This document shows positions 7,698 to 42,504 of a DNA stretch of 64,000 nucleotides, in pieces. Both the position numbers and the translations under genes were made by a program. Where the stretch lies: the NCBI GenBank assembly GCA_018668255.1, contig JABISZ010000054.1, forward strand, positions 7,780 through 71,779, written 5' to 3'. The notes below the pieces were generated by a model. The model was not told the origin of the DNA, did not search any database, and saw only the letters and a list, made by a program, of their open reading frames with translations. The stretch comes from Pseudomonadota bacterium (GTDB lineage: Bacteria > Pseudomonadota > Gammaproteobacteria > Ga0077536). Positions within the stretch are counted from its first letter, which is position 1. Every line of letters starts with the position of its first letter.

Positions 7698-7773
7698 GGC
7701 CTGGTAGCTCAGTCGGTAGAGCAGTGGACTGAAAATCCTCGTGTCGGTAGTTCGAATCTACCCCAGGCCACCA
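7698..7773 (+). tRNA. tRNA-Phe (GAA)
   Basis: GGCCTGG acceptor stem, TAGCTCAGTCGGTAGAGC D-arm, CT-GAA-AA anticodon loop, GTTCGAAT T-loop, 3' CCA. Confidence 0.98.
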
Positions 7774-16188: not shown

Positions 16189-16485
16189 ATGGGAACAAAC
16201 GCTGATGATCTACAATTAATCGAGGAATTCAAAAAGAATCCTATTGGCCATCACAGCCCCGATTTACAACGATTATTAAACCGCCTCCGGTCCGTTCCGA
16301 TGGAAAACAAATATTGTCTCGTTGTAATTAAACCGAATCGAGAGTGGCAGCTTGCAAAAACCACTGGGAAACCTGGGGTCGCTGTAAAACTACTACAGAA
16401 AAAATTCACCAGTCAACCCGAAGCCGAATGGTATGTTTTTCGAAAACGCTGGAAAAACCTCACCGGCGAAACATTAAAACCATAG
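16189..16485 (+). CDS. dmfA1: N,N-dimethylformamidase alpha (small) subunit-like, copy 1
   Basis: LIEEFKKNPIGHHSPDLQRLLNRLR...EAEWYVFRKRW; immediately upstream of a DMFase beta gene. Confidence 0.8.
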   Translation: MGTNADDLQLIEEFKKNPIGHHSPDLQRLLNRLRSVPMENKYCLVVIKPNREWQLAKTTGKPGVAVKLLQKKFTSQPEAEWYVFRKRWKNLTGETLKP

Positions 16486-16570: not shown

Positions 16571-18832
16571 ATGAAAATTACAGCCTATGCAGATAAAACA
16601 AGTGTCGCACCTGATGAAACTATTAACTTCATGGTCAACTGTAATGCTAAGCAGTTTAAAGCAGACTTTGTAAAGTTAATTTGCGGAGACATGAATCCCG
16701 ACGGACCTGGCTATCAAGAAAAAGTCATCAGAACTAAAGCAACTGGCACCTACCCGGGCAGAAAGCAGACTATCTATGCCGGTTCATTTGTTCAAATCCA
16801 AGACAACGAAAAATTTAATCACCTTGAAAGCTTTACTTTGAAGGCGTTCATATGGCCAACCACCCCAAATAAAGGGCACCAAACCATTATTGGCAACTGG
16901 TCAGAAAAAGATCAAAACGGTATGTCACTGGACATAAGTCCGAATAACAATGGCCTGATGTTAACAATAGGTTCAGGGCCTGATAAAGTTCAGTATGTCG
17001 TCTCTGGGAAACCATTTTTAGAAAGAGAGTGGTATTTTGTAGCGGCGACCTACAATGCAGACACCAAGCGAATTACTCTGATTCAAGAGCCTTTGCATAC
17101 GCACGCAAAAACACGCGATCGAAGTATTAAAAATGGAAAATCCAAATTCATCACACCACCAAAATCAAATCGTCGGATCACTATTGGCGCCCAATTTAAA
17201 AGAACAGACAAAGGTCGTACGGTCTGCCAAAACTACTTCAATGGTAAAATTGACAGTCCTCTTATAGCCGCAAGAGCGCTAACAGCCAACCAAATAGAAC
17301 AACTCAAAACGGGTTACGATAAAATTAGAATGTCCAATGACGTCGTTGCCGCATGGGACTTCTCAACCGACATCTCTTCGTTAAAAATTTCTGATGTTTC
17401 TGGAAACAATATCCATGGGAAAGTTGTCAATATGCCAGTAAAGGCTATGACTGGCTGGAACTGGGATGGGGAAGAAATGAACTGGAAGCATGCGCCGAAA
17501 CAATATGGTGCGATTCACTTTCACGATGATGATGTTCACGATGCGGGCTGGGAAATAGACGTCTCATTAAGGGTTCCAAAAACTCTGAAAAGTGGTCTTT
17601 ATGCCATCCGGCTCCGCGCCGGTAAAGATCTGACAGATGAAGACTACGTGCCGTTTGCTGTTCTTCCCCCAAGAGGGAAGGTGACGGCTGATATCTGCTT
17701 CATCTTGCCCACCGCGACCTACATGGCATATGCCAATGAACACATGGGAACCGACTCTCCCATAGCACAGTTACTTGGTGGTCGTCTTGTCGAACACGAA
17801 AGACAGGATCTCTATCGTAATGAGCACAGAGAATATGGGGCTAGTTGCTATGATACTCATACCGACGGCTCGGGGGTCTGCTACTCATCGCGACTTCGAC
17901 CAATATTAAATATGCGACCAAAATATAAGAGCTGGCTGGGTGGAGAAGGCTCTACACTATGGCAATTTAACGCAGACACTCATATTACTAACTGGCTTGA
18001 AGCTCAAGGCTATAATTACGATGTTATTACTGATGAAGAACTTCATCACGACGGAGTCTCCGCCTTAGAAAAATATCGAGTAGTCCTGTCGTCCTCTCAC
18101 CCTGAGTATCATTCGAAAGAAATGTGGGATGCCATGTCGACCTATCAAAAGGGCGGAGGTCGCTTAATGTATCTCGGTGCGAACGGATGGTACTGGCGTA
18201 TTGCCTTTCATCAAGAAGCCGAAGGTGTCTTAGAAGTCCGGCGGGCAGAAGGGGGCATACGCGGCTGGGAGGCACAAACAGGAGAATATTACCACTCCTT
18301 TACCGGAGAATACGGCGGACTATGGCGACGAAATGGGAGAGCACCTCAAAAAATTGTTGGTACGGGATTCACTGCACAAGGGTTTGATATCTCGTCTTAC
18401 TACAAAAGGAACCCTGACAGTTTCAAAAAACCAGTCAAATGGATAATGAATGGCGTCAAGGATGACGAGCTAATCGGTAACTTTGGACTTATTGGTGGAG
18501 GTGCTGCGGGACTTGAACTCGATCGTGCTGATACAAAACTGGGGACACACCCCGATGCATATGTACTCGCATCTTCCGAAGATCACACTGATCTATACCT
18601 AGTCGTTTGTGAGGAACTCTTGATTAATTACCCCGGCCTAGGAGGACAAGAAAACCGTCTCGTTAGAGCAGATCTTGTATTCTACGAAACAGATCAAGGT
18701 GGAGGCGTGTTTTCAACGAGTTCAATCGCATGGCCTGGGTCGCTTTCACATAATAATTATGACAACAACGTGTCAAAAATCACTAAAAATGTGCTTGATC
18801 GCTTTGTCGGAGAAGACCCTCTACTAGACTAA
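16571..18832 (+). CDS. dmfA2: N,N-dimethylformamidase beta (large) subunit-like, copy 1
   Basis: LamG-like N-terminal region, YGAIHFHDDD, TYMAYANE, CYDTHTDGSGV, RPILNMRP, HPEY, GLELD. Confidence 0.92.
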   Translation: MKITAYADKTSVAPDETINFMVNCNAKQFKADFVKLICGDMNPDGPGYQEKVIRTKATGTYPGRKQTIYAGSFVQIQDNEKFNHLESFTLKAFIWPTTPNKGHQTIIGNWSEKDQNGMSLDISPNNNGLMLTIGSGPDKVQYVVSGKPFLEREWYFVAATYNADTKRITLIQEPLHTHAKTRDRSIKNGKSKFITPPKSNRRITIGAQFKRTDKGRTVCQNYFNGKIDSPLIAARALTANQIEQLKTGYDKIRMSNDVVAAWDFSTDISSLKISDVSGNNIHGKVVNMPVKAMTGWNWDGEEMNWKHAPKQYGAIHFHDDDVHDAGWEIDVSLRVPKTLKSGLYAIRLRAGKDLTDEDYVPFAVLPPRGKVTADICFILPTATYMAYANEHMGTDSPIAQLLGGRLVEHERQDLYRNEHREYGASCYDTHTDGSGVCYSSRLRPILNMRPKYKSWLGGEGSTLWQFNADTHITNWLEAQGYNYDVITDEELHHDGVSALEKYRVVLSSSHPEYHSKEMWDAMSTYQKGGGRLMYLGANGWYWRIAFHQEAEGVLEVRRAEGGIRGWEAQTGEYYHSFTGEYGGLWRRNGRAPQKIVGTGFTAQGFDISSYYKRNPDSFKKPVKWIMNGVKDDELIGNFGLIGGGAAGLELDRADTKLGTHPDAYVLASSEDHTDLYLVVCEELLINYPGLGGQENRLVRADLVFYETDQGGGVFSTSSIAWPGSLSHNNYDNNVSKITKNVLDRFVGEDPLLD

Positions 18833-18865
18833 AGGTCTAGCAAAGACCTCTGAAAGTTACTTTTC

Positions 18866-18926
18866 TTTTTTAGAAAAACACTTGTTCTAAAAAACATATT
18901 GCGCTGCGAGATACTAGCACTATAAT
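18866..18926 (+). promoter_or_regulatory. Operator-like box plus sigma70 promoter of sRNA-1
   Basis: 10-bp inverted repeat TTTTTTAGAA / TTCTAAAAAA (18866-18894); TTGCGC-16 nt-TATAAT (18899-18926). Confidence 0.7.
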
Positions 18927-18931
18927 TCTTG

Positions 18932-19016
18932 CTCCTTCTTGGTATTTCGACCTCCCCTCGACTCCAAGTTGGAACCTCCCAAAAAGAAGTCGGGCCTCCT
19001 TGGTCCGACTTCTTTT
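18932..19016 (+). ncRNA. Candidate small RNA 1 with C-rich anti-SD loops
   Basis: Hairpin CTTGG..TCGA-CCTCCCC-TCGA..CCAAG, single-stranded ACCTCCC, terminator AAGAAGTCGGGC-CTCCTTG-GTCCGACTTCTTTT. Confidence 0.7.
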
Positions 19017-19042
19017 ACTTCACAAAACGTTTATTCCAAAAC

Positions 19043-19097
19043 AGAAAAACACTTGTTCTAAAATAATGTTGCAACGCAATATAATATTCGATAAAGT
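19043..19097 (+). promoter_or_regulatory. Second copy of the operator-like box plus promoter of sRNA-2
   Basis: AGAAAAACACTTGTTCTAAAA 19043-19063 identical to 18872-18892; TTGCAA-17 nt-TAAAGT (19069-19097). Confidence 0.7.
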
Positions 19098-19100
19098 GCA

Positions 19101-19220
19101 TGGGTCTGAGAGAATTTGTCTTCCCCTCAATCTCTCAGACAGCCCAATTAGTAATTCGACTCCCCTCGAATCTAACTGGGATTCTCCCCCAAACCGGACC
19201 TTCATGGTCCGGTTTTTTTT
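19101..19220 (+). ncRNA. Candidate small RNA 2 with C-rich anti-SD loops
   Basis: 10-bp stem GTCTGAGAGA / TCTCTCAGAC with a CTTCCCCTC loop; TTCGA-CTCCCC-TCGAA hairpin; TTCTCCCC linker; terminator AAACCGGACC-TTCAT-GGTCCGGTTTTTTTT. Confidence 0.72.
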
Positions 19221-19280
19221 GCTTCCGCCTAAAGAGAAACTCTAAAAACGAATCGTTTTAGAAGTCATTACCTAAACTGA

Positions 19281-19808
19281 TTAATCGGCACCGCTGCGTT
19301 TTAACAACAACTCACATACCTCTCGGACTGCACCATGCCCCCCGACCCGATTACAGACGTAATCAGCATTGGCGATAATTTGAGGAAGAGCATCGTTCGG
19401 ACATGCTGAGAACCCAACTGCGAGGATGGAGGCTAGATCATTAACGTCATCCCCTACAAATGCCACTTCAGACATCTCTATATCCCATTCTTTAACAAGC
19501 CCTTCTAAAACCTGCAGTTTATCAGTGACGCCAGGGTAATAGCTTTGAATGCTAAGTTTTTCCATACGTGCGCGAGTAGGGGCATCATCCTCACCAGTCA
19601 TCACACAGATTAATACGCCTGTACTCTCCAAAAGCTGCATTCCTTTGGCGTCTCGAGTGTCAAACTTTTTTAACTCAATACCTTGAGCTCCGTAATACAT
19701 CCCACCATCAGTAAGAGTGCCATCAACGTCCACTACCAAAGCTCGAATCTTGGGTATGCGTGTCGCTGAGGATTGTGCAGCTTTTTGTTTATCAGTCATG
19801 AAATTCAC
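19281..19808 (-). CDS. KdsC-like HAD phosphatase (KDO-8-phosphate phosphatase family)
   Basis: DVDGTLTDG, FDTRD, FVGDDVND, GGHGAVREVCE. Confidence 0.9.
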   Translation of the reverse strand: MNFMTDKQKAAQSSATRIPKIRALVVDVDGTLTDGGMYYGAQGIELKKFDTRDAKGMQLLESTGVLICVMTGEDDAPTRARMEKLSIQSYYPGVTDKLQVLEGLVKEWDIEMSEVAFVGDDVNDLASILAVGFSACPNDALPQIIANADYVCNRVGGHGAVREVCELLLKRSGAD

Positions 19809-30262: not shown

Positions 30263-30685
30263 ATGCCGGCACCAAAAAAACCCACTGCACTGCAACAAAA
30301 CTACGCCTTAACGGCAGTAGATGACTATGACATGAGAATGTATGTGGTCGATCACTTGAAAGATAAAGACAAAAGAAACGCGCTTATAGCAGAGCATGCG
30401 AAATTCCCTAGAGGAGGAGCGACTCAACCGGGAAGCCCGCCTCCACTCCAGAGCCAAACGTTAAAGAGATTAGTAGATAAGTTACGAATGGTGCCTCAAA
30501 CCGGGAAACACACCATCGTAGAAACAATTCCATGGAAGGAATATGCCATCGGCATCTTACCTGGCGCCCGCGGGAAGCCGGTAAAAATAACTAACGAAAA
30601 ATATAACTCTAGAGATGATGCTAACCACGCTATTTTTTGCAAACGATTAAAGGCTTTGTGCGCTCATTACGATATCCGCATGTAG
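30263..30685 (+). CDS. dmfA1: N,N-dimethylformamidase alpha subunit-like, copy 2
   Basis: LIAEH..P.G, LKRLVDKLR, PWKEYAI..LPGARGKP, HAIFCKR; upstream of beta copy 2. Confidence 0.78.
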   Translation: MPAPKKPTALQQNYALTAVDDYDMRMYVVDHLKDKDKRNALIAEHAKFPRGGATQPGSPPPLQSQTLKRLVDKLRMVPQTGKHTIVETIPWKEYAIGILPGARGKPVKITNEKYNSRDDANHAIFCKRLKALCAHYDIRM

Positions 30686-30699
30686 TTCAGGGGAAAACC

Positions 30700-33108
30700 A
30701 TGAAACAAGACTCAATGTTACGCATAACCGGCTATTCCGATAAATGCTCCGTTACACCAGGAGATGAGATCACATTTTATGTTCATAGTGAATTTGGTGA
30801 ATCTTACCAATCTGATATCGTAAGACTTATCAACGGAGACACCAATCCTGAAGGTCCAGGATTCAAGGAAAAACTATTCCGAACCAGTGTTAATGCAAAG
30901 TACAAAGGTGAGAATCAGCCTTTAATGGCAGGAAGTTACCTGCTTGCCCCGCAAAGTGATCATTTTGACCTAGAAAGCCTGACGCTGTGTGCCTATATTT
31001 ACCCAACAACTCCAACGGTCGATACAGAAGGAGTTGCGGTCGGAGAACAAGCGCTGCTCTCGAAATGGGATGCAGATAAGAAAAAAGGGTACGGATTATT
31101 CATCAATAAAGAGGGTGAGCTTGAATTTCGTTTAGGGAATGGCAGAGGAAAAGTAGAAAGCTTTAGCACTCGCAAACCCATGATGAGAAAAATTTGGTAT
31201 AAAGTCATGGTCAGTTTCGACGCGTCTACTGGCAAAGGACTCATCTGCCAGATCCCTTATCTGACTGCGACTAATGGTGGTCATGGACCAAGTATGCTCC
31301 ATCCCCGCTCTGACACCGAAGCTGAACGTAAATTTATCGCTAAAAACGGCGCAGCCAAAATGCACGAAAGCCCCTTCACGATGGCCGCTAGCTGCAAGTC
31401 CTCGGAATGTGGCCGGCAGGTGTTTGATGGACATTACAACCATCTGGAACAGCCTTGGGATATCCCCGAGCACACTGAAAAATACAATGGGAAAATCGAT
31501 AGACCACGAGTGGCAAATCGAGCGCTAAACAGAGCTGAAATAGAGCTTATTCTAGGTGCACCTAGAATGGAGGCCATACCAACAGAACTAAGGTCTTCTA
31601 TCGTAGCTGCTTGGGATTTCAGCGCTAATATTTCAGAAAATGCTGCGTCCACGCACATTGTAGATGCGGGTCCCCATCGACTACATGCTGTTGGAATAAA
31701 TCTCCCAGTCCGGGGAACACCAGGTCATAACTGGTCCTCCCACTTCATGAGCTTCATCCATGGGCCTCAAGAGTACGGCGCAATACATTTTCACGATGAA
31801 ACTGTGGATGATGCGCGTTGGAAGCCAACATTTACGCTAAAAATCCCCGAACGCATGGTCAGTGGAGTCTATGCTGCTCGCCTCAGGGTCAAAGGGAAAT
31901 CAACTCCAGATCATGAAGACTATATCCCATTTTTCGTACGTCCACCTAAGGGCACAACGACTGCGAAAATTGCTCTAGTCATGCCGACTCACAGTTATAT
32001 GGCATACGCGAACGATAACTTAAGCGTTAACTCCGTGGTAGCACAATTATTAACAGGACAGGTGCCACTCCTGCAACCAAGCGACTTATTACTTAATCAA
32101 GAGCGCGGATATGGACTAGGGACGTATGCGTCCTATCGAGACGGCTGGGGAGTAAACGTGTCTTCTCGTCTGCGCCCGATCCTCAATATGAGGCCCAAGT
32201 ATCTGCATGTGCTCTCGCCATCGCTTTGGCAGTTCAACGCAGATTTACATCTCGTTGACTGGTTGCATGAACTTAAGTATGACGTAGATATTATTACTGA
32301 CGAAGACGTGCAAAGAGAAGGCGTGACGCTTCTAAACCAATATCCCATAGTCTTAACAGGACACCATCCGGAGTATGTCTCTGAAGAGGCAATGGACGCC
32401 TATCATGACTACCAGCTGCAAGGCGGTCGTTTTCTATATCTGGCAGCCAATGGCTTCTATTGGATCACTGTGCCGCATCCCGAAAACCCCAACATCATCG
32501 AGGTGAGAAAAGGGGATAACGGAACTCGAGCATGGACTATTAACCCTGGCGAATACTGTAATGCCTTCGATGGAAAACATGGTGGCTTATGGCGAGTTCG
32601 AGGACGAGCTATGAGCAAGCTACTCGGCGTCACTTTCACTTCTTTTGGCCTCACATATTCTTCCTACTATCGCCGCGCGCCGGATAGCAATCTGCCTGAG
32701 TGCCAATGGATAATGAAAGGCTTAAGTGCTGACGAGCCTATTGGAAACTTTGGCTTAGTAGGTGGAGGTGCCGCGGGTCTTGAACTCGATCGATACGATC
32801 TAGAACTGGGCACGCCACACAGAGCGTATCTATTAGCTCACTCTGAGGGGCATAACGATATCTTTGTATCAGTAACTGAAGAATCGACGTTTAATGCCAG
32901 AGGCTATACACAAGGAGGAACAGGCGACAACAATCCTTGGACACGCGCAGATATCGTCTACTACAAGACACCGAACGACGGGGCAGTTTTTTCTGTCGGT
33001 TCAATGTCATGGTGTGGCTCATTGCAGCACAATGATTACGACAACAATGTCTCTCAAATCATGCAAAATGTTCTCAATGGTTTTCTAAAACCAGGCACAT
33101 TGCCATGA
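30700..33108 (+). CDS. dmfA2: N,N-dimethylformamidase beta subunit-like, copy 2
   Basis: YGAIHFHDE, SYMAYAND, RPILNMRP, LWQFNADLH, HPEY, GLELD; ATG 30700 after a GGGG RBS. Confidence 0.9.
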   Translation: MKQDSMLRITGYSDKCSVTPGDEITFYVHSEFGESYQSDIVRLINGDTNPEGPGFKEKLFRTSVNAKYKGENQPLMAGSYLLAPQSDHFDLESLTLCAYIYPTTPTVDTEGVAVGEQALLSKWDADKKKGYGLFINKEGELEFRLGNGRGKVESFSTRKPMMRKIWYKVMVSFDASTGKGLICQIPYLTATNGGHGPSMLHPRSDTEAERKFIAKNGAAKMHESPFTMAASCKSSECGRQVFDGHYNHLEQPWDIPEHTEKYNGKIDRPRVANRALNRAEIELILGAPRMEAIPTELRSSIVAAWDFSANISENAASTHIVDAGPHRLHAVGINLPVRGTPGHNWSSHFMSFIHGPQEYGAIHFHDETVDDARWKPTFTLKIPERMVSGVYAARLRVKGKSTPDHEDYIPFFVRPPKGTTTAKIALVMPTHSYMAYANDNLSVNSVVAQLLTGQVPLLQPSDLLLNQERGYGLGTYASYRDGWGVNVSSRLRPILNMRPKYLHVLSPSLWQFNADLHLVDWLHELKYDVDIITDEDVQREGVTLLNQYPIVLTGHHPEYVSEEAMDAYHDYQLQGGRFLYLAANGFYWITVPHPENPNIIEVRKGDNGTRAWTINPGEYCNAFDGKHGGLWRVRGRAMSKLLGVTFTSFGLTYSSYYRRAPDSNLPECQWIMKGLSADEPIGNFGLVGGGAAGLELDRYDLELGTPHRAYLLAHSEGHNDIFVSVTEESTFNARGYTQGGTGDNNPWTRADIVYYKTPNDGAVFSVGSMSWCGSLQHNDYDNNVSQIMQNVLNGFLKPGTLP

Positions 33109-42429: not shown

Positions 42430-42504
42430 TGGCTGGGCTGACAGGATTCGAACCTGTGAATGCTGGGATCAAAACCCAGTGCCTTACCGCTTGGCGACAG
42501 CCCA
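42430..42504 (-). tRNA. tRNA-Gln (TTG)
   Basis: TGGGCTGTCGCCAAGCGGTAAGGCACTGGGTTTTGATCCCAG...GTTCGAATCC...CAGCCCAGCCA; conserved position between ispE and prs. Confidence 0.98.

Follow-up and report, generated by a model that had tools for sequence, protein, structure and literature searches.

Tandem small RNAs with exposed C-rich motifs beside a dimethylformamidase-like gene belong to an undescribed, lineage-restricted RNA family of Gammaproteobacteria

In sX13 of Xanthomonas and in RsaE/RoxS of Firmicutes, multiple C-rich loops pair with G-rich sites near ribosome-binding sites, and the NmsRs of Neisseria use pairing of the anti-Shine-Dalgarno (anti-SD) type. The 6C RNA of Actinobacteria (PMC6486639) likewise has several C-rich loops, which engage G-rich sequences close to the ribosome-binding site, and this is the kind of mechanism that we propose, in conditional terms, for the RNAs reported here. 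The cuckoo RNAs (CcsR or alpha-r14; RF02344) are made up of two to four adjacent hairpins, each with a loop carrying CCUCCUCCC (Reinkensmeier and Giegerich 2015, PMC4615179). Like them, the RNAs considered here are short, often multicopy, repeat a C-rich anti-SD-like motif and have stems that vary by compensatory change. With the NmsRs, which regulate metabolism (PMC5362039), they share an arrangement as tandem sibling genes, and with the Betaproteobacteria toxic small RNA (RF02278) a C-rich, anti-SD-like sequence followed by a terminator.

These likenesses go together with clear differences. Whereas the cuckoo RNAs carry their motif in the loop of every hairpin, the family reported here has CCUCCCC or CUCCCC in one P1 loop (in two loops in the long units) and once more in a single-stranded copy, after which the terminator follows. 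The cuckoo hosts are Alphaproteobacteria (Rhodobacterales, Rhizobiales), whereas the present family is confined to one gammaproteobacterial order. The NmsRs, for their part, belong to Betaproteobacteria, and no sequence or covariance-model relation to them was found, while sX13, RsaE/RoxS and 6C are unrelated to the family in sequence, structure and host. The alphaproteobacterial families named in a first-pass annotation of this DNA are accordingly to be seen as analogues and not as relatives, since the organism is a gammaproteobacterium.

Comparison with Rfam 15 (4227 models) at gathering score matched no described family: in the whole window, by which we mean the stretch of 64,000 nucleotides analysed here, the sole matches were two tRNA genes, at 7698-7770 (+) and 42433-42504 (-), and AbcR / alpha-r15 was not matched. 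When positions 18800-19300 were compared with Rfam at E up to 10, 15 chance-level hits were obtained, the best of them (rli32) with 22 bits against 100. RF02344 was not among these 15 hits, nor was it found at E 0.1 in the loci of four relatives, which had no Rfam match at E up to 0.1. RF02278 was the only thematically related model to score at all, but its 15.5 bits (E 1.7) fall short of the gathering score, 50 bits, and membership in it was rejected. A description of the family was likewise not found in the literature on C-rich or anti-SD small RNAs (sRNAs) or on dimethylformamidase in connection with small RNA.

The two units occupy an intergenic gap of 448 bp (18833-19280) and run from promoter to terminator on the + strand. 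Upstream of the gap lies a gene for a 753-aa protein resembling the large subunit of N,N-dimethylformamidase (16571..18832, +; Pfam DMFA2_C, PF20254, E 2.9e-98), itself preceded by a 98-aa ORF (16189-16485), and a CoA-transferase gene precedes this amidase pair. Downstream of the gap is a HAD-hydrolase gene on the - strand. The window holds a second dimethylformamidase-like locus (30263-30685 and 30718-33087), the 140-aa upstream ORF of which has no Pfam match. In genome G000 there are three dimethylformamidase-like large-subunit paralogues with mutual identities of 45-49%, and the one on contig C33 (C33:259-2607) contains one in-frame TGA.

All of the sequence features listed by the first-pass annotation are present at the places it gave. 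Unit 1 (18933..19016, +) would yield an RNA of about 84 nt. Its first hairpin, P1, has the form TTCGA-CCTCCCC-TCGA and displays CCUCCCC in the loop (18951-18957); a single-stranded linker follows, with an unpaired CCUCCC at 18975-18980, and then an intrinsic terminator (18985-19012), a 15-bp hairpin AAGAAGTCGGGCC-TCCTT-GGTCCGACTTCTT with TTTT behind it, bringing the unit to its end at 19016. Both C-rich motifs of this unit have an unpaired probability of 1.0. The additional CTCCTT reported for the terminator loop of unit 1 is indeed there, but it is not kept in relatives. Unit 2 (19104..19220, +), of about 117 nt, begins with an extra 5' hairpin (19104-19140) whose loop carries CUUCCCC (19120-19126). 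Its P1 (19143-19181) reads TTCGA-CTCCCC-TCGAA, with the loop CUCCCC at 19160-19165, and the unpaired linker at 19183-19190 reads TCTCCCCC in DNA and UCUCCCCC in RNA. A terminator scan placed the terminator at 19191-19215, followed by eight T.

Both units fold far more stably than expected from their composition. The minimum free energies are -37.3 kcal/mol for unit 1 and -46.5 kcal/mol for unit 2, as compared with -18.8 and -26.5 kcal/mol for shuffled sequences (z -6.26 and -5.70), and for neither unit was any of 200 dinucleotide shuffles equally stable. A covariance model of the family, R1, described below, recognizes unit 1 with 65.9 bits (E 6e-13) and the core of unit 2 (19141-19222) with 74.6 bits (E 5.8e-15). 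The units are very probably genuine structured non-coding RNA genes.

A putative sigma-70-type promoter can be read from the sequence in front of each unit. For unit 1 (18899..18926, +) it consists of TTGCGC (18899-18904), a spacer of 16 nt and TATAAT (18921-18926), an arrangement that recurs in the family; for unit 2 (19069..19097, +) it consists of TTGCAA (19069-19074), 17 nt and TAAAGT (19092-19097), and its position is kept in six genomes of the genus, in the units orthologous to unit 2. A simple consensus scan missed both promoters because their -35 hexamers are weak. Every family unit examined nevertheless has TTGC..GC, 16-18 nt, TAnnnT in front of it, with the RNA starting about 7 nt further on. 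Further upstream lies a conserved site, TAGAAAAACACTTGTTCTA in unit 1 (18871..18889, +) and CAGAAAAACACTTGTTCTA in unit 2 (19042..19060, +), which was recognized by its recurrence in family promoters. Its consensus, nGGAAAnAnnnTTnTTCnAA, holds about 16 bits of information, and 37 of 40 family promoters have the site 26-28 nt 5' of the -35 hexamer. It is a candidate for the place at which a transcription regulator binds, probably one shared by both units.

Searches with this site brought no convincing regulon to light in two genomes. In G000, regular expressions retrieved the two sRNA promoters and weak look-alikes only, and a position weight matrix applied to two A+T-rich genomes gave more than 100 hits of at least 13 bits in each, without any pattern. 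Two further observations concern the promoter regions of other genera. In high-GC genera the TGC-N3-GCA element of the -35 region recurs about 27 nt further on, where the RNA starts, in inverted or direct orientation (L026, L033, L036, L028, L042). Genus g18 has another motif, GTGTTACGG, some 40 nt 5' of the GGAAA site. These repeats and this motif may be operators or regulator sites.

That the two units are copies of one RNA family is established by their relatives. The gap DNA is present in all six other genomes of the genus, always 3' of the same gene and always with two units, and among 80 loci encoding relatives of the 753-aa protein many gammaproteobacterial ones, of far higher G+C content, have units of the same design downstream. 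R1 was built on 29 aligned units (84 positions, 20 pairs) and searched against 48 sources and then 21 sources; the second search retrieved 40 units in 21 loci at E <=0.001. In the alignment of these 40 units, 86.6% of the cells form standard pairs, and changes on both sides occur at 15 of the 20 pairs (72 cells). The alignment was fitted to R1 and is therefore biased towards the structure of the model, so that the relevant measure is provided by controls: none of 500 column shuffles reached the observed covariation score, and sliding the partners by 1-3 columns lowered pairing to 25-52%. A plain MAFFT alignment analysed with RNAalifold gave 4 pairs only, with misaligned arms, and was superseded by the model-fitted alignment. 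The compensatory change first noticed between the two copies hence extends to 40 units.

The same alignment bears on the strand. G-U pairs are frequent (in columns 70-84, for example, GC occurs 22 times and GU 12 times) and would be non-pairing C-A on the opposite strand, and U runs follow the terminators on the + strand only. Together with the promoters, these features identify the + strand as the RNA strand. Units 1 and 2 represent a real RNA family in two copies, and covariation supports its structure. With this covariation, and with Rfam giving no match either at gathering score or when E values up to 10 were allowed, the idea of an undescribed family of sibling sRNAs has stood up well. 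The family is lineage-restricted, and the kind to which it belongs, that of sibling sRNAs with multiple C-rich anti-SD-like seeds, is already known.

The C-rich motif is the sole strongly conserved sequence of the RNA. Its family consensus is (CG)ACCUCCCCUCG, and the forms present in the window are CCUCCCC, CUCCCC, CUUCCCC and CCUCCC. High-GC genera have CGACCUCCCCUCG in the P1 loop, closing pairs included, and GACCUCCCCUCG in the linker, and in the genus of the window the motif is shortened to CUCCCC or CCUCCC. CUCCCC is kept across units ranging from 38% to 66% G+C, while the stems vary. Over 37 units the mean unpaired probability is 0.99 for the first motif and 0.86 for the second, as compared with 0.44 for the whole RNA, in agreement with the exposure of anti-SD-like motifs that had been noted for the two copies. 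The core of the 16S anti-SD sequence is ACCUCC. Since the motif contains the core of that sequence with further C residues, it would pair best with ribosome-binding sites of the GGGGAGG(U) type.

Within its host lineage the family is widespread but not universal. R1 finds two matches only in the window's own 2.3-Mb genome, namely units 1 and 2, and the family occurs in 34 of 81 species genomes, belonging to 8 of the 18 genera of one gammaproteobacterial order that consists of a single family. The carriers are uncultured marine and soil Gammaproteobacteria. Each of them has one locus, with one to five tandem copies: a single unit in 13 genomes, two in 17, three in one, four in two and five in one (G028). 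In a sample of the class that took one genome from each family, none of 150 genomes (149 from other families and one from another genus of the host family) had the RNA, in a search with R1 under the stricter filters of Infernal in which few candidates were scored per genome. A pattern scan of metagenome contigs for two copies of the motif gave 12 stretches, among which 5 have family members, amounting to 6 covariance-model hits; two of these 6 differ in their 5' part. The remaining metagenome matches (L257, L258, L259, L262, L263) are unrelated contigs in which the 13-mer CGACCTCCCCTCG, or a close variant, is simply repeated in tandem, and none of them has an R1 match.

Dimethylformamidase-like paralogues are found in 78 of the 81 genomes, but the RNAs follow one orthologue group, the members of which are 66-99% identical to the window protein. 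The location beside an amide hydrolase gene, remarked upon for the window, is a recurrent one: 26 of the 34 carriers have this PF20254 orthologue upstream of the RNAs, on one contig with them and in the same orientation; in 20 it is their direct neighbour, and in 6 a distance of about 1.9-2 kb separates them. The latter six genomes span three genera, and in them a gene of about 1.9 kb stands between the amidase gene and the RNAs. In L042 (4785-6572), where it was annotated, its product of about 595 aa combines TPR repeats with a guanylate/adenylate cyclase domain; such a cyclase/TPR gene of about 595 aa between amidase gene and sRNA array was noted in three genera (L042, L028, L032, L037, L052). 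In four carriers the contig is too short to show the upstream gene. In G011 (L130, G011:C12:13288-16379) the RNA lies directly 3' of the CoA-transferase gene, the small and large amidase genes both being missing there, and in G012 the gene before the RNA encodes TPR repeats (the ORF is cut at the start of the locus, so that a cyclase domain is not seen), with no orthologue among the matches listed. G025 and G033 complete the tally of 34. Conversely, nine genomes have the orthologue without the RNA. The link between RNA and amidase gene is therefore strong but not obligatory, and the neighbours of the RNAs other than the amidase pair differ between genera.

RNA libraries contain small parts of the region: 20 runs from 17 studies hold fragments of 18400-19700. 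In four of these runs, contigs of depth 3-5 cover 18774-18924, 18941-19100 and 19181-19331 at 100% identity, and further contigs cover the flanking genes; the contigs cross the borders of the units, carry neither ends nor strand, and may stem from read-through or contaminating DNA. As for RNA chaperones, Hfq (PF17209) is present in 76 of the 81 genomes, including the four other species of the genus, but was not found in G000 (98% complete), G001 and G003, the three closest relatives, and ProQ was not found in G000. Hfq may have been lost in one small clade that keeps the sRNAs. In some other bacteria, strong G-C seeds act without a chaperone.

The units have what generally marks a trans-acting sRNA gene, namely a promoter of their own, an intrinsic terminator and no conserved ORF, and also what generally marks a base-pairing sRNA, a conserved covarying structure together with an accessible conserved seed. 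As the anti-SD core is extended by C, these RNAs most likely act by pairing in trans with ribosome-binding sites rich in G, and, on the anatomy of the RNA, we favour this action with some confidence over the other mechanisms considered. According to this proposal, each gene would have a sigma-70-type promoter of its own that drives transcription on the + strand, under the control of a shared regulator bound to the site of about 20 bp located 26-28 nt upstream of the -35 hexamer, and the intrinsic terminator would end the RNA. Each RNA would then display two or three accessible C-rich motifs, in apical hairpin loops and in the single-stranded linker before the terminator. These motifs would pair in trans with G-rich (GGGGAGG-like) ribosome-binding sites of several mRNAs, and pairing would block binding of the 30S subunit and so lower translation.

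Potential targets were sought by scoring 2248 translation-initiation regions of G000, in which 2252 genes had been crudely called, against the exposed seeds. The top site (1 of 2248, -26 kcal/mol) is the ribosome-binding site of a gene for a luciferase-like monooxygenase, as classified by Pfam (G000:C33:3528-4424; L154:3528-4424), with 14 nt perfectly complementary to the 5' hairpin loop of unit 2 (19114-19127). This gene adjoins, and is divergent from, another dimethylformamidase-like paralogue. It was rejected as a conserved target, as in G001 and G003 loop and site have both changed, with two mismatches and no compensation. The G-rich ribosome-binding sites that the first-pass annotation had put forward as targets did not fare better. 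The one before 30263 (CGAGGGGAG) differs by a single mismatch in G001 and G003, and G002, G004, G005 and G006, the four remaining species of the genus, do not have it at all; the one before 16571 is not kept in relatives. The amidase operon as a target in cis was also set aside, because many genomes have G-rich ribosome-binding sites before the large and small subunits whether or not they carry the sRNA; the small-subunit site of the window is weak (AAAGGAGC).

A comparison of G000 with G004, from the same genus, covered 820 orthologue pairs with consistent starts. The number of pairs in the top 10% of both genomes was 20 for the sRNA seeds, 20 for the 16S anti-SD, 21 for reversed seeds and 14-18 for shuffled seeds. 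Because the control seeds equal the sRNA seeds, the signal in this comparison reflects conserved Shine-Dalgarno strength only. Accordingly, no specific target survived the conservation tests, whether in the genome-wide scoring of G000, among the relatives within the genus or in the comparison of G000 with G004.

This outcome lends some weight to a different reading, namely that the RNAs are protein decoys, whose repeated (CG)ACCUCCCCUCG motifs would sequester an RNA-binding protein. The logic would be that of CsrB/RsmY/RsmZ and CsrA, transferred to a C-rich motif, with 2-3 motifs per RNA and 1-5 RNAs per locus, a variable copy number like that of sponge RNAs. It is also suggested by the motif itself, since 12-13 nt including the flanks are invariant in both contexts, the hairpin loop and the single-stranded linker, which exceeds what a pairing seed usually needs and counts against the pairing mechanism. 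In low-GC genera, on the other hand, the flanks drift (CGAUCUCCCCUCGA, UUGACCUCCCCUUCAA) while the C-rich core stays, as would fit a pairing seed. Moreover, no candidate protein is encoded beside the RNAs, the neighbours of which vary between genera, and we know of no bacterial protein that binds CCUCCCC. On balance we regard protein decoys as rather unlikely.

A related speculation, which we hold to be unlikely, is that, instead of regulating a few mRNAs, the locus supplies a tunable pool of 16S-like anti-SD decoys switched on by one regulator, with a maximum of about 10 motifs per locus. The pool would either compete with ribosomes for every strongly G-rich ribosome-binding site, and so shift translation globally, or titrate a protein that binds the invariant 12-13 nt motif. 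If true, the presence of such a pool beside the amidase operon would link this switch, in uncultured marine Gammaproteobacteria, to the use of amides or nitrogen as nutrients.

Alternatively, the units might be cis-linked elements of the dimethylformamidase-like operon, such as 3'-end products, stabilisers or insulators, rather than independent genes acting in trans. This would account for the fact that 26 of 34 genomes have the same orthologous gene upstream and in the same orientation, and one RNA-library contig (18774-18924) joins the end of the amidase gene to the promoter of unit 1. Yet each unit has its own conserved -35 and -10 elements and upstream site, and in the window a hairpin with a T run already follows the stop codon of the amidase gene (16571-18832). 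The intervening gene of about 1.9 kb in six genomes of three genera (cyclase/TPR, as annotated in L042) and the position of the RNA after the CoA-transferase gene in G011, where the amidase gene is missing, speak against such a dependence as well, and we consider it quite improbable. That the region instead encodes small proteins is hardly credible: ORFs of 45-81 aa do overlap the units (18929-19066, 19000-19245 and 19100-19261 on the + strand, 19020-19205 on the - strand), and the first-pass annotation had singled out their translation and conservation as evidence against its RNA genes, but in G001 and G003 not one of them has retained its frame, ends or length, those of 53-81 aa being non-conserved even at this DNA identity of 87%, they are absent from the other four species of the genus and from the high-GC genera, and substitutions track base pairing, not codons.

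Very little is known about regulatory RNAs in uncultured marine bacteria. The present analysis adds a well-defined family that can be searched for with a covariance model and that has a fixed genomic address, a conserved promoter and a candidate regulator site. The design in which tandem siblings carry multiple C-rich, anti-SD-like motifs, known from Alpha- and Betaproteobacteria, Firmicutes and Actinobacteria, is thereby extended to this gammaproteobacterial lineage, in RNAs that have no detectable relation to those families. Their steady tie to a dimethylformamidase-like locus offers a starting point for studying the control of amide use in these organisms.
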